64,000 bases of DNA from Candidatus Hadarchaeota archaeon (GCA_964474885.1 CAYYWO010000001.1:82619-146618); one strand, 5' to 3'; shown: positions 14,013-64,000, counted from the stretch's first letter. Notes: a model not told the origin generated them from the sequence alone. Numbers and translations are program-made.

Positions 14013-15221
14013 TTGATGCTTGACGTAGACGAAGTCCGAAGAGACTTCCCGATCCTTAAATCTGGACTCGTTTATCTCGATAACGCCGCTAGCACCCTAA
14101 CACCAGAGCGGGTTCTGCAGAAAATGTTGGAGTACTACCGGTCTTATCGCGCAAATGTTTTCAGAGGGGTTCACAGCCTCTCGAGACGGGCAACAGAGGA
14201 ATATGAACAGACGAGAGAGGAGGTACGCAAATTCATCAATGCCCGACATGTGGAGGAAATAATTTTTGTGAAGAATACCACGGAGGGCATTAATTGTGTG
14301 GCTAGGGGCCTCTCGTGGGAAAGGGGGGATCGAATAGTTTCAACTATATTGGAACACCACTCAAACTTGGTTCCATGGCAAAGGGTTGTAAGGGATCATG
14401 GGGTCGAGTTAAAGCTCGTGAGGCCTGACCGGCAAGGATACTTCCAGATGGGGGACTTCGAAGAGGCGATAGACGAACGAACGAGATTGGTGGCGATCAG
14501 TCACGTGTCAAATGTTCTGGGTTGCCGCCTCCCAGTTGAGCAGGTGGCTAGGATAGCGAGGGAGAGGGGCGCCCTTTTGCTTGTAGACGGGGCACAATCG
14601 GTGCCGCACATGCCTGTAGATGTACAGGAACTAAAATGCGACTTCCTCGTTTTCTCGGGGCACAAAATGCTGGGCCCAACAGGGGTGGGAGTTCTATACG
14701 TCCGGAAGGAAGTGCAGGAAGGGCTCGAACCGCTCACAACGGGTGGCGGGATGGTCGAAGATGTGGGAGAAAATTGTTACAGTCCGCTACCAGGACCTCA
14801 TCGTTACGAAGCTGGAACGCCCCCCATAGCTGAGGTCATCGGGCTAGGCGAAGCTATTAGATATCTGCAGGAGATTGGACTCCAAAACGTGGCGGCACAC
14901 GAGAAGAAGCTCACACGGGAGATGTTGTCACTTCTACTCGAATTGGGTGTTGAGGTGTATGGACCGATGAAGCCGGAGGATAGGATAGGTTTGCTCTCTT
15001 TCAATTTGAAGGGCGTGGATCCACATCAGGTGGCTTTGGCTTTGGATCGAAGGAGCATCATTGTGAGATCTGGACACCACTGTGCAATACCTCTACACAC
15101 CCGTCTCCTCAAGGCTCCAAGAGGAAGTGTTCGAGCTTCGGTTTATCTTTACAACGGCCTCCAAGACGTTGAGAGTTTAATTGATGCCTTGGGGAAAGTA
15201 GGTGCTCCGGCCGGGATTTGA
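14013..15221 (+). CDS. sufS: Cysteine desulfurase (SufS/Csd, class V aminotransferase)
   Basis: 402 aa. 'LDNAASTLTPE', PLP-lysine region 'SGHKMLGPTGVGVLYV'. Confidence 0.88.
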   Translation: MMLDVDEVRRDFPILKSGLVYLDNAASTLTPERVLQKMLEYYRSYRANVFRGVHSLSRRATEEYEQTREEVRKFINARHVEEIIFVKNTTEGINCVARGLSWERGDRIVSTILEHHSNLVPWQRVVRDHGVELKLVRPDRQGYFQMGDFEEAIDERTRLVAISHVSNVLGCRLPVEQVARIARERGALLLVDGAQSVPHMPVDVQELKCDFLVFSGHKMLGPTGVGVLYVRKEVQEGLEPLTTGGGMVEDVGENCYSPLPGPHRYEAGTPPIAEVIGLGEAIRYLQEIGLQNVAAHEKKLTREMLSLLLELGVEVYGPMKPEDRIGLLSFNLKGVDPHQVALALDRRSIIVRSGHHCAIPLHTRLLKAPRGSVRASVYLYNGLQDVESLIDALGKVGAPAGI

Positions 15222-15277
15222 ACCCGGGGCGCGAGCTCGAGAGGCTCGCATGTTTGGCCGGGCTACACCACCGGAGC
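15203..15277 (-). tRNA. tRNA-Glu (anticodon CTC)
   Basis: Hand-folded cloverleaf: acceptor GCTCCGG/CCGGAGC, anticodon loop CTCTCGA, T-arm CCGGG-TTCAAAT-CCCGG, A73. 3' end overlaps the last 19 nt of sufS in antisense. Confidence 0.85.
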
Positions 15278-15309
15278 ATCTTTAATTTTGAATCTCTTAC
15301 TCATATCTA

Positions 15310-15384
15310 CGGGCCCGGAGGGATTCGAACCCTCGATCTGCGGCTTAGGACGCCGCCGCCCTGTCCTGGCTAGGCCACGGGCCC
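15310..15384 (-). tRNA. tRNA-Arg (anticodon CCT)
   Basis: Cloverleaf: acceptor GGGCCCG/CGGGCCC, anticodon stem GCGGC/GCCGC, loop GTCCTAA, T-arm GAGGG-TTCGAAT-CCCTC, G73. Position 32 = G is atypical. Confidence 0.75.
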
Positions 15385-26356: not shown

Positions 26357-26431
26357 GGGCCCGTAGCTCAGCCAGGTTAGAGCGCTCGGCTGATAACCGG
26401 GAGGTCGAGGGTTCGAATCCCTCCGGGCCCA
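26357..26431 (+). tRNA. tRNA-Ile (anticodon GAT)
   Basis: GGGCCCGTAGCTCAGCCAGGTTAGAGCGCTCGGCTGATAACCGGGAGGTCGAGGGTTCGAATCCCTCCGGGCCCA. Canonical cloverleaf, anticodon loop CTGATAA. Confidence 0.9.
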
Positions 26432-36052: not shown

Positions 36053-36126
36053 CGCTGTTGATTGAGAGGAGCTCCTTTTTAAATCGAAAACAATTGTCTG
36101 TTACTATGGTAACAGACACTTTACGG

Positions 36127-36201
36127 TAGCGGGGGGAGGATTTGAACCTCCGACCTCCGGGTTATGAGCCCGGCGGGCACTCCAAGCTGCCCCACCCCGC
36201 T
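36127..36201 (-). tRNA. Initiator tRNA-Met (anticodon CAT)
   Basis: AGCGGGGTGGGGCAGCTTGGAGTGCCCGCCGGGCTCATAACCCGGAGGTCGGAGGTTCAAATCCTCCCCCCGCTA. Archaeal initiator hallmarks: A1:U72 pair and three G:C pairs at 29-31/39-41. Confidence 0.88.
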
Positions 36202-43003: not shown

Positions 43004-43078
<75 letters not shown>

Positions 43079-43153
43079 CTCCAAGAATTTTGCTCATATT
43101 TGGTTTATCTCTCTCGAAACATAGGCTTCGATTTAAACAACTAATCCTATGAG

Positions 43154-43239
43154 CGCCGGGGGTGGGATTTGAACCCACGAGGCCCAACGGGGCCACACGC
43201 TCTCAAGGCGTGCGCCTTACCTGGCTAGGCTACCCCGGC
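43154..43239 (-). tRNA. tRNA-Ser (anticodon TGA)
   Basis: 86 nt. Long variable arm GGCCC-CGTT-GGGCC, anticodon loop CTTGAGA, T-arm GTGGG-TTCAAAT-CCCAC, G73. Confidence 0.85.
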
Positions 43240-55476: not shown

Positions 55477-56060
55477 GGCATAAACCCCCTCCCTATCAAG
55501 TATATCTCAGCGCTCCCCTTTCTCGACGCTTTTGGTTTGGTCGCTTTTGAAAATTCGAAATGCTGGTCAAATTCTCGCTTGAATTCTAGGAACTTCTCCC
55601 CCTGAAAGATCTTGAGAAGCGCGCATCCCCCTTCTCTCAACACGCGCTTACAGATCTTCAGGGCCGCTTGGCAGAGCTCGACTGATTTGAGGTGATCAAC
55701 ATCCCAGACCCCGGATATGCGGGGGGAGGCGTCAGATAACACAACGTCTGCTTTCCGTGGGAGGTGGGACAGGATGAGATCAGGAGTGTTCGGGTCAAGC
55801 AAATCCGCCTTAATCGAGAGCAGATTGTATTTGGGAAACCTCCTTATTGGCAACACATCCACACCCAGGACAAGTCCAGTCTCCCCGACTACTTGTCCCG
55901 CGACCTGCATCCATCCTCCGGGTGCTGCACCCAGGTCCACCACTACGTCTCCCTTCTTCATTAGCCGGTACCTCTTATTGATCTCCAAGAGCTTGAAGGC
56001 AGCCCTACTCCTGTAGCCCAGCTCTCTTGCCATACGTCTGAACCCATCAGCCTTCTGCAA
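55473..56060 (-). CDS. rlmE: 23S rRNA (uridine-2'-O)-methyltransferase RlmE/FtsJ
   Basis: 195 aa. 'YRSRAAFKLLEIN', 'VVDLGAAPGGWMQVA', 'VVLSDASP', K-D-K-E catalytic pattern. Confidence 0.9.
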   Translation of the reverse strand: MQKADGFRRMARELGYRSRAAFKLLEINKRYRLMKKGDVVVDLGAAPGGWMQVAGQVVGETGLVLGVDVLPIRRFPKYNLLSIKADLLDPNTPDLILSHLPRKADVVLSDASPRISGVWDVDHLKSVELCQAALKICKRVLREGGCALLKIFQGEKFLEFKREFDQHFEFSKATKPKASRKGSAEIYLIGRGFMP

Positions 56061-56475
56061 TTTTCCACTCCTTTCCCCTTAGCCCGATCGTTTTCATTCC
56101 CCGATGGACCTCCCGCATTAGGAGGCTGGGGTCGGATGAAAAGAATAGGTGACTTTTGCACTTACAGTCGCTGCAGCCAAAGCGCTCTATGTAGGGGAGC
56201 TTTTTGGAGAGTTCCTCCGCTAGCTGGCATTCTTTCCGTTCTTGAGTCTCAACAACTATGATGTCATACGGAACGGCACGTAGCAAAAGGTAGTCTATAT
56301 GCCAGTAGAGCTTCTTTTCCCTCTTCAGGTGCCTTCTTACCCTTTGCTCGATTCCCCCCATTGCGGATCCGACATAGGCATAGAATCCGCGCTTGAAGTG
56401 CACCTCCCCTAATCCACCTATAGGGATCGAGAGGTCGAAAGGTACCCTCAGGAATAGCACATAAATTCCCTTCAT
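56047..56475 (-). CDS. DUF123 / GIY-YIG-like domain protein
   Basis: 142 aa. 'KGIYVLFLRVP...GFYAYVGSAMGGIEQRVRRHL...LYWHIDYLL' typical of the archaeal DUF123 (GIY-YIG-related) family. Confidence 0.65.
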   Translation of the reverse strand: MKGIYVLFLRVPFDLSIPIGGLGEVHFKRGFYAYVGSAMGGIEQRVRRHLKREKKLYWHIDYLLLRAVPYDIIVVETQERKECQLAEELSKKLPYIERFGCSDCKCKSHLFFSSDPSLLMREVHRGMKTIGLRGKEWKIAEG

Positions 56476-58672: not shown

Positions 58673-59380
58673 TTAAGCTAGCCCTATCGCTATCCAGTAA
58701 ACGCCCGTGTTCCAGACTGAGCCAGCCCCTCTTCCATCTTCCTGAACGTAAATACGGAAGGAGGTCGTAGTCACATCATACGCCTGGACCCAAATGTTCT
58801 CTGAGGTTTCGGCAGGATTTTCTAGCGTGAGCAGAACTGTTGGTTTTTGGGAGAAGGGCACCGGGAAGTTTATAGGAGCCGTGACCCCCTCGCCCGAGAG
58901 CCCAGTGGTGACACGTCCCCACTGAATCAACAGTGTACCGAACTTGGCATAATTTTCCTCGATTCCTGGCATCTCGAGTAGCTCGAGCGTCCCCTCTACT
59001 ATGAGGTCACCATTCACCCAGACTTTGTCCCACTGAAATCTAAACTTCTCGATTTGCCAGCTAACAGGTGGAGGTGTGTAAATATATCCACAAGGTGAGG
59101 TCATCCTCAGATTACCACTAATCTCAAGTTTCTCGGCTGGGTTTTGGACACCTATTCCCAGTTTTCCCTGGATGCCCAAGTTAGCCCCCACTTTGACCGT
59201 GTTTTCGATCAAGATTCTGCCTGAGCCTGATGAAAGTCTTAAGGTCAGATTCTTGCCGCAGTTCGGATTTGTTCCAACCGTAGTGTTTTCAAAGCAAATG
59301 TTCTCGTAGACAGTGCTGGGTCCCGAAAGTGAGACAGAAAGGATCAATAGCAGTCCAATCAGAAAAGCGGCACGCCTCAT
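58673..59380 (-). CDS. Secreted protein with C-terminal H-type-lectin-like domain (paralogue 3 of operon)
   Basis: Likely start 'MRRAAFLIGLLLILSVSLSG' (signal peptide). ORF track extends to 59422. Central 'LGIQGKLGIGVQNPAEKLEISGNLRM' tail-fibre-like motif. C-terminal 'LIQWGRVTTGLSGEGVTAPINFPVPFSQKPTVLLT...SFRIYVQ...VYWIAIG' matches the H_lectin pattern V.F...F...P.V...GF...W.A.G. Confidence 0.7.
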   Translation of the reverse strand: MRRAAFLIGLLLILSVSLSGPSTVYENICFENTTVGTNPNCGKNLTLRLSSGSGRILIENTVKVGANLGIQGKLGIGVQNPAEKLEISGNLRMTSPCGYIYTPPPVSWQIEKFRFQWDKVWVNGDLIVEGTLELLEMPGIEENYAKFGTLLIQWGRVTTGLSGEGVTAPINFPVPFSQKPTVLLTLENPAETSENIWVQAYDVTTTSFRIYVQEDGRGAGSVWNTGVYWIAIGLA

Positions 59381-60129
59381 GTTCCCTCCCCCACGGCTAT
59401 CCAGTTGATGAATACATCCCAAGAGTCGGATGGCGGGGAGATGTCACCGTCCCTTTGTTCCCACACTTTAAAGCCCCTTTTCGTAACAGAGGCAACCTGG
59501 ATCCAGTAATCAAAGGAGTTCGGGTCTAGGTAGTTCGTCACATCCGCCGTGACGGCCACGCTGGGAGTGCTCTTGAATTCCCGTGGGAAAGTTATGGAGT
59601 AGTAGCCTTCATCGCTCAATCCTGTTCTTTGTCTGCCCCACTGGAGGAGCAAGGGCCCTATTTTCACCCAGTAAGCCTCGCCGGAGGTGTTGACATTGTA
59701 CTTGCTCACCATGCCCTCCTCTTTGAAGCTAGTCATCAGGAGTCTCCCCAAAACGTTTAACCTGTGTATCTTCGTCCCTTCCCTCGAGACCGACAGCAGA
59801 ACCTCGTCCCAGTTACCGAGCATGGTGATCTCTCCGTAAATGAAAGAGTTTGGATTGGCAAATTTCACCTTCCCGCAAACTTCCAGCCCTTGAATGGTAC
59901 CCGTTGAGCCTATGCCCACCCTGCTCCCCGCGATTAGGTCGCCAGATATCGAGACAGAACTCTGTTCGATCTGCAGGACACCTGAGGGGGATGTCAGCCA
60001 GAGCCTAGGGGCTCGCAAGGTGGTGTTCTCGATGGAGATGTTCTCCCCGTCCACTTGGAACAGAGCATCTGAGAGCTTGACCATCAACAGCAGGCTGATT
60101 AAGCAGATGAGACAATATAACTTTCGCAT
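59377..60129 (-). CDS. Secreted protein with C-terminal H-type-lectin-like domain (paralogue 2 of operon)
   Basis: Likely start 'MRKLYCLICLISLLLMVKLSDA' at 60129, 2 nt after the stop of the giant gene. ORF track extends to 60171. 'VGIGSTGTIQGLEVCGKVKF' motif. C-terminal 'LLQWGRQRTGLSDEGYYSITFPREFKSTPSVAVT...GFKVWEQ...INWIAVG'. Stop overlaps the start of paralogue 3 (ATGA). Confidence 0.7.
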   Translation of the reverse strand: MRKLYCLICLISLLLMVKLSDALFQVDGENISIENTTLRAPRLWLTSPSGVLQIEQSSVSISGDLIAGSRVGIGSTGTIQGLEVCGKVKFANPNSFIYGEITMLGNWDEVLLSVSREGTKIHRLNVLGRLLMTSFKEEGMVSKYNVNTSGEAYWVKIGPLLLQWGRQRTGLSDEGYYSITFPREFKSTPSVAVTADVTNYLDPNSFDYWIQVASVTKRGFKVWEQRDGDISPPSDSWDVFINWIAVGEGT

Positions 60130-60131
60130 TT

Positions 60132-63100
60132 TCACCACCCTATTGCCATCCAGTGGATTGGAATGTCCCAATCCACCCCCGTGTTTACCTTATCCTGTTG
60201 CAACCATGCCTTGAAGCCCAGCGGGCTCACGTCATACACTTGGCAGACCCAGATGTTCTCTGCGGAGCTGGCAGTTTCTATCTCTGGCGTGACGATCACA
60301 ACGGGGAGGCAGTTGAAGGGTCTGGGGAAGCTGACTGAGAACCCACCCTCACTTGTTAGACCGCTTTTGATCTGCCCCCACTGAATGAGGAGACCTCCGA
60401 TCCGGATCCACCACCAGTTTTCATCCCCTCCGATATTCTCGGAATTCTCGAGAGATGCCTCTAGCCTCCTCACCTTGAGCGGGCCCAGCACAGGGTAAGA
60501 GGTATCGATGTATGGTATTCTGGCGAAAGTTTGTTCTTGTCCCACTTGGATCTCTTCAGGCTCCCATAAGGCAGGTTTCCTGCACCACAAATGCTGCTTG
60601 GGTATAGGGAAAGTAATACTCCCGCCTGGCTTGACCCATCCGAGCCCCAACCTCCATTCTCCCTCCCCTTGATTCCACTCGAGTCTCACTGGGACAGGGA
60701 CCGAGGCTACGAGGTCAACTTTACACTTGTGAAGTGTCGGGGGCTGGGGTCTCCATTGAGAAATGACCACCCTGTTGTTCTCATAAAGCTGACAGGCATC
60801 ATCGGTAGCTACGAGCAACTGGTAAGTACCGCTCTCTGGTGGGAGGAGCCAGCCCTCCCACCTCAGACTGAGATTTTGGGTGGCGTCCTCCCAAGAGTTT
60901 GTGCCCGGTTTTCTGGCCTCTATGATGACATCATCGACGGCGATCCAAGATTCCTCTGATCCACCGATCCCGGCTTGATCTTTCACATAAATGTACAGGC
61001 GTACGGCTGTCACGCTGGATCGGACGGTCATCTGCCCCTGCATCTGGTACCAGACTCCAGTAGAGACGGAGTGTGATCCAGACAAGTAACGTGAGCATAT
61101 GGTTTTCCACTCTGATCCCTCAAGCACCTCCAATCTGATTTCCTCTACATCTAGTTCTCCATCCCCTCCGTAGCAGTACCAAAGGGAACCCCTGACTTCG
61201 TATCCGGCTGGGATTTCAGTAGGCAGATCTTGGGACCAATAAGCGTATCCTATATACGTGGTGGTGCCATCCCATGGTCTGTCATATCCCCAAACTTTCA
61301 CGGAGCCGCTACCGTCACCTGTATGATCCTCGGTGGTCCAGCCTGGTTGCTTATCGGTTTCTCCCGGGTCTGAATGATCTCCCAGCACCCAATTATCTGG
61401 CTGTCCATCACCGTCCGTATCTGCCATTTTGCCATTTGTTGTTTTATTTTCCCAATCTCCAGCTTGATCAATTACCTCCAGACTCAAGTCGTCTACAAGT
61501 ATTGCGGAGACCTGACCATCACCATCATCCCTGACACCGATGTGGATCAAGAAGTTGTCTACTGTTCCGGTAGTAGTGTACTCCTTCTTGAAGAGATACC
61601 ACTTCTTGGTCGTTACAGAATGGCTTTCGTCGGTGCACCAACCCCAGCTCTCCCAGCTCCCGTCCTGTCTGATCTTGACTTGGACATTTTCGTAGTCTAG
61701 CTCCCCATCTCCTCGGTAACAGTACCAGAATTGTATCTTGATAGTCGTGTTCGGTGGAATTGGGCCGATGGACTGCCACCACTCCGCATCTTTTTGGGAA
61801 CCGTTTCCCGAGATGACACATAGACAAGCACTATTGTCAGCAGAGTGTTCCTGCCCGACCAAGGTAGCTAGACTGTCGTCTCCTGTTGTGTAGGTGACTT
61901 TCCAATCCCAGTCGGGGAGAACTGCGATGTCTTGAGCAAAGTTGCCGTTGACGATCCTTTCTTGTCCATCTGACAGCAGCGAAACACTGTCAATCCACAA
62001 CCAGTTATAGCGATCTCCCACTGAACCTCCATAGTCTTCCACATAGATGTATAATCGGACCCATTCTACCTCAGAGGAAGTAGTATAGCTACCTGTTGCG
62101 GATGTCCAGTCTGTCGCTCCACCGACCTCTCCACTGAATGAAGTCACGGTTGACCAGCTATCCCCATCCAGAACCTCCAACTTGATCGTGACTTGGTCGA
62201 ACTCCCCGTTCGTTGTCCAGTAGAATGAGCCGGACAGGGAGCTTCCTGCAGGGATGGGAGGAGAAATGAACTGTCTCAACTCCACTTCCTCATACTCTGT
62301 TTCAAGTGCTCCCGCCTGTACATCGATGGCAAAGGAGTGACTCCCATCACCATCGTGGTCCCGGTGATACTCAGTGTCGAAGTTCGATCCCTTGCTACAG
62401 CATACGCCAGGGGCCATCATGTCCTCAGGATCCACTCGGTACACGAACATGATCCAGTTGTTTGGGCGGATCTCTCCGTTTCTCAGGACTTCATGCGTCC
62501 CCTTGAAGGTGGCTGCAACTTTTTCGGTAGTCCCATAAGCGGGATTGTCTACTACGCCGCCGCATTTATTCGGGGCACCATAGACATCCGTTCCTCTGTA
62601 GGAGTCAAAGTTTGTTCCAGCGTAGTAAAAGTACCTCAGTCCTTCATCCATGGTCGCTTGGATGTTGTCCGATAATCGGGATTTCGTGGCCGAGGGATTG
62701 CCATAGTACATGTAGATTTTGGAGGGGGTTGAGGGAACGCGGATCCAGATCTTGGTAGAGGTCGTGTTTTTCCCAGATTCTACCCACCAGGGTATCTCGG
62801 TTCCGTCTCCTGTCACGAACCTGAGGTCGGAGAGATCTGGCTTCAGCTTTCCCTGGGAGATGAGGCTTTTTGTGTCGAGTGTGAGGAGCAGCTGAACATC
62901 GGGAGCGTTTCGCACTACGCTAGCTCCAGGCTCGGCGTATCTGACTTGGAGAACCGGGCGCTCACTTGTTGCCTCTCTAGAGTTGAACTCCGCCCAGACA
63001 CCATAGGCCCGCTCTGCCTCTATATCAGTCCGCATCATGAGGGATATCAGGTTGTCGGAGTCCAGCTCTCTCTGGACCAAGTCATAGGGGATGGCCCACT

Positions 63101-64000
63101 TTATCCATTCATCGACAGGGTTTTGTCCATCGTTCGGCCCATACCAGGTGACTGAACCTATAATGTTCTCTGAGGGATTGGGGTCTGTTCCATAGGGCTG
63201 ATTGTTCCAAGTTATCGTGGTCTCCTCCCAGCTGTCATCGCCACAGAAATGTAGAACGGCGGTGAATGAATCATCAGCCTTGTAGTCAGCCTCCGTGCAG
63301 TAGATCATGAACTTGGCTGAAAGGATGGTCGAGCCAGGAGGTATGGAGGATAGATCAAACCGGAGATATGAGCGGTGATCATTTCTCACGAAGAACCGAT
63401 AATATGATTCGACTCGGAGATCTGCGGTGGTTCCGTAATTTCCGTCCGGATCTCCCTCTCGGACCTTTGCATCGGCAACCGGTTCGAGTGTAACGGTTTT
63501 GCTGATACCACCACTCAGGAACATGAAGGTCTCGGGGATCTGGATGGCCCTCCTGAACGACCAGCCGTCCAAGTGCCATTCAGTGTTATCCATTTCTGCC
63601 CCTAGCCTCAAGTTTTCACCTATAATCCCCACATCTGGACCGCTGAGTTTCAGGTGTCCGTAAATCTCCAAGTTCTCTCTTATCGGAGTTCCCCAGTAGT
63701 AAGGTATGCCTATTCCAACCTTTCCTGAAACATATGAAACCTGTTCCGAACTGCCCAGCACATGAACGGAAGCCAGCAGATCCCTTAACTCGAAGTAGGT
63801 GACAACGAATCTGTTATAGTGGGTTGAGGAGGTTCTAGCCCCCACTCCAGCCAACTTTCCCAACTCCCGCGGGGCATCTGTAAAGGAAAGAATAAGATCT
63901 CCTTCGTAGTATACCTCAAACTCGCCCGAATAATATACCACCCTGAAGCTGTGCCACCCGTTGTTTATAGCGAGGTCGTTTTCTGCAAGGACATCGCCGT
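60132..64000 (-). CDS. Giant secreted multidomain lectin/adhesin-like protein (over 1290 aa; N-terminus outside window)
   Basis: Reading frame stays open past the ORF-track start, which is only a GTG at 63941, up to the window edge. Domain-like modules by eye: 'VGIGIPYYWGTPIRENLEIYGHLKL' tail-fibre-like motif; DNRLRE-like module 'YLRFDLSSIPPGSTILSAKFMIY...DSWEETTITWNNQP'; three about 150-aa repeats carrying 'GDGELDYENVQVKI' / 'GDGELDVEEIRLEV' / 'NGEFDQVTIKLEV'; PA14-like 'GTYQLLVATDDACQLYENNRVVISQW'; C-terminal H-type-lectin-like 'LLIQWGQIKSGLTSEGGFSVSFPRPFNCLPVVIVT...GFKAWLQ...IHWMAIGW'. Confidence 0.75.
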   Translation of the reverse strand, partial: GDVLAENDLAINNGWHSFRVVYYSGEFEVYYEGDLILSFTDAPRELGKLAGVGARTSSTHYNRFVVTYFELRDLLASVHVLGSSEQVSYVSGKVGIGIPYYWGTPIRENLEIYGHLKLSGPDVGIIGENLRLGAEMDNTEWHLDGWSFRRAIQIPETFMFLSGGISKTVTLEPVADAKVREGDPDGNYGTTADLRVESYYRFFVRNDHRSYLRFDLSSIPPGSTILSAKFMIYCTEADYKADDSFTAVLHFCGDDSWEETTITWNNQPYGTDPNPSENIIGSVTWYGPNDGQNPVDEWIKWAIPYDLVQRELDSDNLISLMMRTDIEAERAYGVWAEFNSREATSERPVLQVRYAEPGASVVRNAPDVQLLLTLDTKSLISQGKLKPDLSDLRFVTGDGTEIPWWVESGKNTTSTKIWIRVPSTPSKIYMYYGNPSATKSRLSDNIQATMDEGLRYFYYAGTNFDSYRGTDVYGAPNKCGGVVDNPAYGTTEKVAATFKGTHEVLRNGEIRPNNWIMFVYRVDPEDMMAPGVCCSKGSNFDTEYHRDHDGDGSHSFAIDVQAGALETEYEEVELRQFISPPIPAGSSLSGSFYWTTNGEFDQVTIKLEVLDGDSWSTVTSFSGEVGGATDWTSATGSYTTSSEVEWVRLYIYVEDYGGSVGDRYNWLWIDSVSLLSDGQERIVNGNFAQDIAVLPDWDWKVTYTTGDDSLATLVGQEHSADNSACLCVISGNGSQKDAEWWQSIGPIPPNTTIKIQFWYCYRGDGELDYENVQVKIRQDGSWESWGWCTDESHSVTTKKWYLFKKEYTTTGTVDNFLIHIGVRDDGDGQVSAILVDDLSLEVIDQAGDWENKTTNGKMADTDGDGQPDNWVLGDHSDPGETDKQPGWTTEDHTGDGSGSVKVWGYDRPWDGTTTYIGYAYWSQDLPTEIPAGYEVRGSLWYCYGGDGELDVEEIRLEVLEGSEWKTICSRYLSGSHSVSTGVWYQMQGQMTVRSSVTAVRLYIYVKDQAGIGGSEESWIAVDDVIIEARKPGTNSWEDATQNLSLRWEGWLLPPESGTYQLLVATDDACQLYENNRVVISQWRPQPPTLHKCKVDLVASVPVPVRLEWNQGEGEWRLGLGWVKPGGSITFPIPKQHLWCRKPALWEPEEIQVGQEQTFARIPYIDTSYPVLGPLKVRRLEASLENSENIGGDENWWWIRIGGLLIQWGQIKSGLTSEGGFSVSFPRPFNCLPVVIVTPEIETASSAENIWVCQVYDVSPLGFKAWLQQDKVNTGVDWDIPIHWMAIGW

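Follow-up and report, generated by a model that had tools for sequence, protein, structure and literature searches.

A hadarchaeal gene triplet that probably specifies a pilin-anchored, lectin-tipped trimeric beta-helix fibre

The stretch of DNA considered here, 64,000 nucleotides from a Candidatus Hadarchaeota archaeon (GCA_964474885.1; henceforth the window, in whose coordinates all positions are given), carries at one end three genes, p1, p2 and p3, which lie head to tail on the minus strand and most likely build a sugar-binding surface fibre on a pilin-like anchor. Their products share a short Gly/Ile-rich motif. It is an already published capping loop and probably marks an intertwined trimeric (triple) beta-helix in these proteins also. 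The best explanation of the locus, and one that we regard as likely, is a cell-surface, glycan-binding fibre, pilin-anchored and lectin-tipped, with a trimeric beta-helix between anchor and tip. Motif homology, domain content, the fold of the head, the pilin N-terminus of p3, gene coupling and conservation of the triplet are shown by the analysis; what we infer is that the chains trimerise and mix in a heterotrimer, that the fibre is displayed on a pilus at the cell surface, and that it binds glycans.

All three proteins appear to share a three-part body: a beta-helix chassis of ~125 residues, a short neck and a C-terminal gp53-like/H-type-lectin head. In p3 this body would be mounted on an archaeal type IV pilin-like N-terminus and have two blocks of carbohydrate-binding modules inserted into its chassis; p1 and p2 would be short, secreted forms that themselves lack an anchor. 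The genes are as follows.

58673..59380, minus strand: p1, 235 amino acids from MRR; Sec-type signal peptide, chassis and head
59377..60129, minus strand: p2, 250 amino acids from MRK; Sec-type signal peptide, chassis and head
60132..64000, minus strand: the part of p3 that lies in the window, residues 326-1613 of the 1613-residue protein P0002

The p1 product is identical to database protein P0001, and the complete p3 product is database protein P0002 (1613 amino acids), encoded on source contig L084. The end of the window cuts the p3 gene, its frame remaining open to base 64000; the GTG start at 63941 in a listing of open reading frames (ORFs) is therefore an artefact. The first 325 residues of p3, beyond the window end, comprise a class III signal peptide with Pilin_N, a PPPP linker, the first piece of the chassis and most of a ConA-like insertion. 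The Sec-type signal peptides of p1 and p2 have small residues at -1 and -3. The genes are tightly packed: the p1 ATG overlaps the p2 stop codon (ATGA; ACATGAGG), and 2 nt separate the p3 stop codon from the p2 ATG.

The shared motif

The original prediction, that all three proteins carry a related Gly/Ile-rich motif recoverable by alignment, is borne out. The three strings are present at the following places.

59102..59167, minus strand: p1 motif GKLGIGVQNPAEKLEISGNLRM, residues 72-93 of 235, the canonical capping-loop copy
59860..59925, minus strand: p2 motif SRVGIGSTGTIQGLEVCGKVKF, with Thr in place of Pro
63645..63725, minus strand: p3 motif GKVGIGIPYYWGTPIRENLEIYGHLKL, a variant of the capping loop lengthened by 5 inserted residues (IPYYW)

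They fall in the same columns of a MAFFT alignment, with flanks that are similar over ~40 residues. In a six-frame translation of the whole 64 kb, the regular expression [VIL]G[IV]G.{3,16}L.[IVL].G finds these three sites and no others. A hidden Markov model (HMM) built exclusively from the motif units of unrelated outside proteins, when scored on the 1198 six-frame ORFs of at least 30 amino acids, puts p1 (E 4.3e-9), p2 (E 0.04) and p3 (E 0.5), in that order, in the first three places. Judged by these scores, the statistically canonical copy is that of p1 only, the p2 and p3 copies being degenerate; their assignment follows from the fact that they are paralogous with p1. The p3 loop variant with its insertion is retained in the orthologues P0003 and L081. 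The further suggestion that the motif lies upstream of the lectin module is correct for all three proteins as a matter of order and needs amending as to distance: in p3 the motif precedes the head by ~1050 residues and does not directly adjoin it.

The capping loop, V-G-G/N-pi-x-x-P-x-x-x-L, sits on the edges of the intertwined trimeric beta-helix in structures solved by Caulton et al. 2024 (PMC10769870). That study notes the same intertwined fold in phage T5 pb1 and in the K1F endosialidase, and a recurrence of the loop in myelin regulatory factor (MyRF), an S74-containing protein. Some of the mosaic adhesive trimer (MAT) fibres carry other beta-sandwich tips instead of the S74 chaperone, and all 21 Bdellovibrio MATs have a conserved, beta-rich N-terminal domain of ~130 amino acids after the signal peptide (PMC10769870). 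The segment LGIGVQNPAEKL of p1 matches the published consensus residue for residue. Earlier recognition of the motif was correct, in other words, and is not a discovery.

Comparison with solved structures points the same way. The 30-residue motif segment of p1, when searched alone against all PDB sequences, finds as its best match the Bdellovibrio fibre Bd2133 (8OND; E 0.0076), the aligned stretches being QGKLGIGVQNPAEKLEISGNLRMTS in p1 and AGNVGIGATAPTAKLEVAGTIHSTS in Bd2133. A profile of eight motif segments retrieves five Bdellovibrio MAT fibre structures, with E-values from 2.4e-13 to 5.5e-3, and MyRF weakly; since this profile included bacterial copies of the motif, its strong scores partly depend on them, and the p1-only query is the fair test. 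The classical T5 and K1F chains are absent from the sequence-search matches. The motif region of the three proteins has no match in Pfam, PHROGs or NCBIfam, and a literature search on the motif string returns nothing but unrelated peptides, microcin J25 among them. The stretch ENTTVGTNPNCGKNLTL, close to the N-terminus of p1, is a doubtful candidate for a second, degenerate copy of the loop, since its Gly/Pro spacing does not fit.

Chassis, neck and lectin head

The chassis of the small proteins has in common the elements IEN..ENTT, L.L.LSS, the loop GK.GIG...P..LE..G, and ..IYGE. It begins at the mature N-terminus in p1 and p2, and immediately after the PPPP linker in p3. In the proposed fibre the chassis would form the triple beta-helix, with the capping loop at its edge, and the heads would form a trimeric lectin-like tip.

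An AlphaFold2 (AF2) model of mature p1 has a mean predicted local distance difference test score (pLDDT) of 75.9, with values of 82-98 in the head and a neck that is a low-confidence hairpin. The first 84 residues of this monomer are devoid of secondary structure, yet residues 21-80 score between 66 and 85. A model of the chassis alone resembles the N-terminus of the full p1 model and also contains no DSSP elements; over the two models together, residues 21-80 score 66-87. A modelled chassis that lacks intrachain structure is compatible with a chain that would fold only when intertwined, as expected for this class, and is not proof of it.

The head is well defined. Its p1 representative is placed by Pfam as follows.

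58682..58933, minus strand: p1 head, Gp53-like_C and H_lectin, both above cutoff

The gathering cutoffs are 24.9 bits for Gp53-like_C (PF21882) and 24 bits for H_lectin (PF09458). The p1 head scores 37.8 and 34.4 bits with the two families, respectively, and the p2 head 32.3 and 26.3 bits; the p3 head scores 33.4 bits with Gp53-like_C and 15.1 bits, below cutoff, with H_lectin. All three proteins belong to the Gp53-like_C/H_lectin group by Pfam, p3 by virtue of Gp53-like_C. When the head of the p1 model is compared with the PDB by Foldseek, it finds 4MTM (E 2.7e-5), 6CXB (4.7e-5), 3WMP (4.9e-4) and 2CCV (6e-3), with probability 1.00 over 91-110 aligned columns, and the R1/R2 pyocin fibres and discoidins are also among its matches. 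The corresponding proteins, AP22 gp53 (4MTM), the R1/R2 pyocins (6CXB, 6CL6), SLL-2 (3WMP), Helix pomatia agglutinin (2CCV) and the discoidins, share this head fold at ~20-25% sequence identity; what sets the present locus apart from them is that three different head sequences occur side by side. Solved Gp53-like_C/H-type lectin heads are trimers in their crystal structures.

Against viral protein models (BFVD), the p1 model has 66 matches, mostly tail fibres. One of them (E 1.3e-4) is A0ZYT2, from Halorubrum virus BJ1, a tailed virus of archaea; this protein is uncharacterised, and the model comparison makes it a possible archaeal-virus source of the head domain.

An N-x-S/T sequon, a possible site of N-glycosylation, stands at the start of the chassis (as ENTT, ENTS or ENVT) in p1, p2, p3 and the two small proteins of a related metagenome contig (L001, see below). 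It lies at ~59290-59300 in p1, at ~60025-60035 (minus strand) in p2 and at residues 193-196 of P0002; P0003, the giant orthologue on L001, has ENTL in its place.

The giant protein

The chassis profile matches P0002 and P0003 in two co-linear pieces, at residues 183-219 and 413-459, which score weakly (2.5-9 bits each) and occupy equivalent positions in the two orthologues. The parts of p3 that fall within the window are these.

63774..63998, minus strand: C-terminal part of insertion 1 (residues 225-400), between chassis pieces 1 and 2; probably a ConA-like jelly roll
63564..63761, minus strand: chassis piece 2 (residues 405-470), corresponding to positions 43-83 of the small-protein chassis profile and co-linear with piece 1 (residues 185-216, beyond the window end)
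62940..63497, minus strand: CBM96/DNRLRE module (Pfam E 3.8e-23, NCBIfam E 2.2e-23)
62655..62837, minus strand: DUF2341 (Pfam E 4e-13)
61539..61880, minus strand: CBM_4_9-like module (Pfam E 7.5e-7), with two related modules on its flanks, the second copy weak
60618..60890, minus strand: PA14 (Pfam E 6e-12)
60135..60581, minus strand: neck and Gp53-like_C/H-lectin-like head (residues 1465-1613; Gp53-like_C E 7e-8)

Insertion 1 has sub-threshold Pfam matches only (3keto-disac_hyd, E 0.0015; Laminin_G_3, E 0.044). The C-terminal neck and head are 30% identical to p1 over 179 residues. Read in this way, p3 would be a p1-like body with two insertions, the ConA-like one at residues 225-400 and then ~1000 residues of CBM96, DUF2341, CBM_4_9-like and PA14 modules. 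Counting CBM96, DUF2341, CBM_4_9, PA14 and the lectin head, it bears no fewer than five carbohydrate-binding modules that can be recognised, besides several weaker lectin-like ones.

The N-terminus of P0002 reads MKG|ISPVVATVLLIAVVLAG, a class III signal peptide in which [KR]G is followed by a hydrophobic helix. Pilin_N (PF07790) scores 32.1 bits there, against a cutoff of 25.2, and 23.4 bits, slightly under the cutoff, in the orthologue P0003. By its Pilin_N domain and its signal, p3 is an archaeal pilin-like protein.

Between 60900 and 62650 (residues ~780-1360 of p3) there are three repeated modules with the signature 'W(Y/F)CYxGDGELD ... VxxxRLYIYVxD', just one of which rises above the CBM_4_9 cutoff; they probably make up a divergent family of carbohydrate-binding modules.

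Conservation of the triplet

The p3-p2-p1 triplet recurs in the same order in three metagenome contigs (L001, L081 and L082) of one other lineage, and on L001 the gene junctions are also as in the window. Orthologues are 45-58% identical (57-58% for p2 in all three contigs) and paralogues 30-35%; each type of protein retains its own version of the loop across orthologues. The family is otherwise rare. A contig scan with the alignment of small proteins finds no relative among the GTDB species representatives, a word-indexed homologue search with p1 finds p1 itself only, and such a search with a four-protein alignment yields three family members, plus weak matches to motif or head.

In the other lineage (L001, 10809-17599; L081, 6780-9189) the triplet is followed by a transglutaminase-core/Peptidase_C93 protein and, further downstream on L001, by genes of HEPN and MCM-WHD-like type and two that are ParA/CbiA-like. 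There the triplet may thus lie in or near a mobile region, in contrast to the housekeeping context of the window.

Assembly of the fibre

The fibre would be displayed on the cell surface through the pilin-like helix of p3, as part of a minor-pilin/adhesin cluster, with its carbohydrate-binding modules and head binding glycans. Several points weigh against this proposal or against its details. A long profile built from the archaeal proteins only reaches 8OND in the PDB at E 0.39, which is not significant, among unrelated matches. The loops of p2 and p3, each on its own, fall below significance. Foldseek finds no structural neighbour in the PDB for the chassis-only model, a result that is uninformative rather than negative. 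Gene context supplies no type IV pilus (T4P) ATPase or platform gene in the contig stretch that was read, where none was specifically examined. Covariation is unusable because the family is tiny and comprises two lineages. Glycan binding is suggested by domain names only. The solved fibres of this class that were found, finally, are all homotrimers (PMC10769870).

The last of these points bears on how the three chains are combined. One chain each of p3, p2 and p1 might be wound into a single beta-helix that carries a mixed, three-lobed head, in which case one pilin helix per fibre could enter the pilus or the membrane. C1q offers an analogy: there, three adjacent genes provide the three different chains of one head. 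Such a p3:p2:p1 heterotrimer is favoured here over three homotrimers, with a confidence that stops somewhat short of even, because p1 and p2 are without an anchor, because the starting points of the three chassis are in register (the mature N-terminus in p1 and p2, directly after the PPPP linker in p3), because the genes are translationally coupled and because the three types have been kept together, each with a loop version of its own. The fuller picture, a heterotrimeric fibre placed at the tip of an archaeal type IV pilus or beside it and made of the giant pilin-anchored chain and the two short secreted chains, is put forward more tentatively.

Three separate homotrimers are a possibility to be taken seriously, if one on which we would not count. 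In that case p3 would form a pilin-anchored fibre, p1 and p2 small lectin fibres that are secreted or are held by an uncleaved N-terminal helix, and the three would be parallel products with differing sugar specificities. All solved relatives being homotrimeric (PMC10769870; also 4MTM, the pyocin fibres and Helix pomatia agglutinin) agrees with this arrangement, as do the complete chassis and head present in each chain and the divergence of the heads to 30-35% identity, which would fit different ligands. What it accommodates less readily is that p1 and p2 have no obvious anchor, that strict order, translational coupling and co-retention at 45-58% identity exceed the needs of independent lectins, and that the chain-specific loop versions are conserved; moreover, a homotrimer of p3 would bring together three pilin helices and three sets of ~1050-residue insertions.

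Genomic setting and pilin context

On contig L084 the order of genes is isoleucyl-tRNA synthetase (IleRS), an 832-residue protein gene, a 308-residue pilin-like gene, p3, p2, p1, S8e, Gar1 and transcription factor B (TFB). The 832-residue protein combines a class III signal peptide with Laminin_G_3 and DUF2341 and matches L-type lectin below threshold; its gene and that of the 308-residue pilin-like protein (6561-9979 on L084) lie upstream of p3, just past window base 64000. A related hadarchaeon (contig L032) has in the same slot (1038-2990) three minimal pilin-like genes, for proteins of 246, 256 and 153 amino acids, and no lectin genes. The third of these, a stand-alone pilin of 153 residues, aligns with the N-terminal domain of p3 at 32% identity (E 3e-20). 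What lies between IleRS and S8e is a variable island of pilin and adhesin genes. Makarova et al. 2016 (PMC4858521) predicted, on the analogy of PilY1, that the large DUF2341 proteins of archaeal T4P loci serve as tip adhesins.

This setting also decides against a viral interpretation, in which p1, p2 and p3 would be leftover tail-fibre genes of an archaeal virus, a provirus or a tailocin and not cellular adhesins. Such an origin would suit the head and the motif, both of a kind usual in phage tail fibres, as well as the Halorubrum virus protein found by fold comparison and the ParA-like, HEPN and MCM-WHD genes near the triplet on L001. Nevertheless it is very improbable: the locus is set between IleRS and S8e/Gar1/TFB, and capsid, portal, terminase, baseplate and integrase genes are all absent from its vicinity; p3 and the two genes upstream of it have class III pilin signal peptides; p1 and p2 carry secretion signals, which virion proteins lack; and the same slot in the related genome is filled by plain pilin genes. 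A prophage origin was rejected on this gene context.

Breadth of the motif

A chassis profile made only from archaeal proteins (p1, p2 and the orthologue P0026) matches, at a threshold of E 1e-3, 8405 of the 1.84 billion protein-cluster representatives searched. The best matches are giant multi-repeat fibre proteins, with up to 50 matched stretches, and the core common to the matches is profile positions 41-70, that is, the motif itself. Among the 48 shortest of the top matches, Peptidase_S74 is the commonest Pfam family (11 proteins), and 34 of 148 top matches have an SDxRxK motif among their final 250 residues. In none of the proteins scanned does a Pfam family match over the ~30-residue unit GNVGIGTTxPxEKLxVxGN, an annotation gap in view of the more than 8000 clusters that match the archaeal profile. 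Within the set P0032-P0179 there are some giant proteins with 20-50 copies of the motif, and one subclass with a 29-residue period and a common N-terminus, MSNxPGxFxExA.

Among 50,697 phage records, tblastn with the p1 motif gives weak E-values, but nearly all matches lie in genes annotated for a tail fibre or a structural protein. They include the distal tail fibre of Thermus phage MN1, in which there are four canonical copies (each at ~E 1e-14), the last of them 10 residues before the SDIRLK cleavage site of S74. The kinship with phage tail-fibre and endosialidase-chaperone motifs that the original prediction proposed is upheld by the MN1 fibre, by 8OND as the best PDB match, by the MAT matches of the eight-segment profile and by the prevalence of S74 among the matches. 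Its proposed kinship with lectin fibres finds support in P0028 and P0043, which lie outside the p1/p2/p3 family and join the motif to a gp53-like/H-lectin-type C-terminus, and its evolutionary link to viral receptor-binding proteins in the resemblance of the predicted head to AP22 gp53, to the fibres of R-pyocins and to many models of phage tail fibres. The three proteins are not themselves S74 proteins: their C-termini are lectin-like, and p1, p2, P0002 and P0003 have no match to PF13884 (Peptidase_S74) even at E up to 1.

The weakness of p2 and p3 taken alone and the lack of fold neighbours of the chassis-only model might suggest that the Gly/Ile-rich string is alike in the three proteins by chance or through low complexity and means nothing structurally. 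This reading is effectively refuted by the p1 score, by the placing of three adjacent paralogues at ranks 1-3 of 1198 ORFs, by the uniqueness of their regular-expression sites in the window, by retention of the motif in orthologues and by the thousands of fibre proteins that the archaeal profile pulls out.

Relation to known systems

A close likeness is that to the MAT fibres of Bdellovibrio bacteriovorus that lack S74, such as Bd2133 (8OND) and Bd1334 (PMC10769870), which have the same capping-loop motif as p1. Their tips are laid out in the same way, a beta-helix of ~95-145 amino acids preceding a swappable beta-sandwich adhesive head, and they are secreted surface adhesins, as p1-p3 are proposed to be. 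By analogy, the p1-p3 system would work like the tip of a MAT or of a phage fibre without the S74 chaperone. The differences are substantial. The proteins considered here are archaeal and without a long fibre shaft, and their head is of the gp53-like/H-lectin type in place of the MAT tip folds; the anchor, in p3, is type IV pilin-like instead of the conserved MAT N-terminal domain; there are three paralogous genes, not one; and the giant chain has ~1250 amino acids of carbohydrate-binding modules inserted into its beta-helix chassis. Strict membership of the MAT class is doubtful because the N-termini are either a pilin domain (p3) or the chassis itself (p1 and p2).

The S74 phage tail fibres and tailspikes (K1F endosialidase, 3GW6; T5 pb1, 4UW8; Thermus phage MN1) have a triple beta-helix with the same motif; p1-p3 differ from them in having no S74 domain and in lying outside a viral genome. 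With the DUF2341 tip adhesins of archaeal T4P (PMC4858521), p3 shares the class III signal and Pilin_N, DUF2341 and minor-pilin-like neighbours, whereas a trimeric beta-helix/lectin-head body and companion small chains are not described there.

What is new is the occurrence of the capping-loop module in the little-known archaeal phylum Hadarchaeota, fused to a type IV pilin-like anchor, together with the insertion of modules into its chassis and the two short paralogues that accompany it in a tightly coupled and conserved triplet. Should the chains assemble together, this would be a new way of building such fibres, and would offer a concrete candidate mechanism by which uncultured archaea of the subsurface or of hot springs might attach to glycans or other cells. 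If a heterotrimer is what forms, the phage-tail-fibre/MAT beta-helix class would gain its first heteromeric member and Archaea the first fibre of this kind to be described in them, and it would become apparent how a receptor-binding module of viral type came to be joined to a pilin.

Other features of the window

The TFB of the window is 89-90% identical to the TFB of Hadarchaeota metagenome-assembled genomes. A DUF123 (GIY-YIG-like) gene (56047-56475, minus strand) lies between the TFB-side genes and a gene for an FtsJ methyltransferase. Six tRNA genes are distributed across the window (at 15201-15384, 26357-26431, 36125-36201 and 43006-43239), the remainder of which is ordinary-looking archaeal housekeeping sequence.

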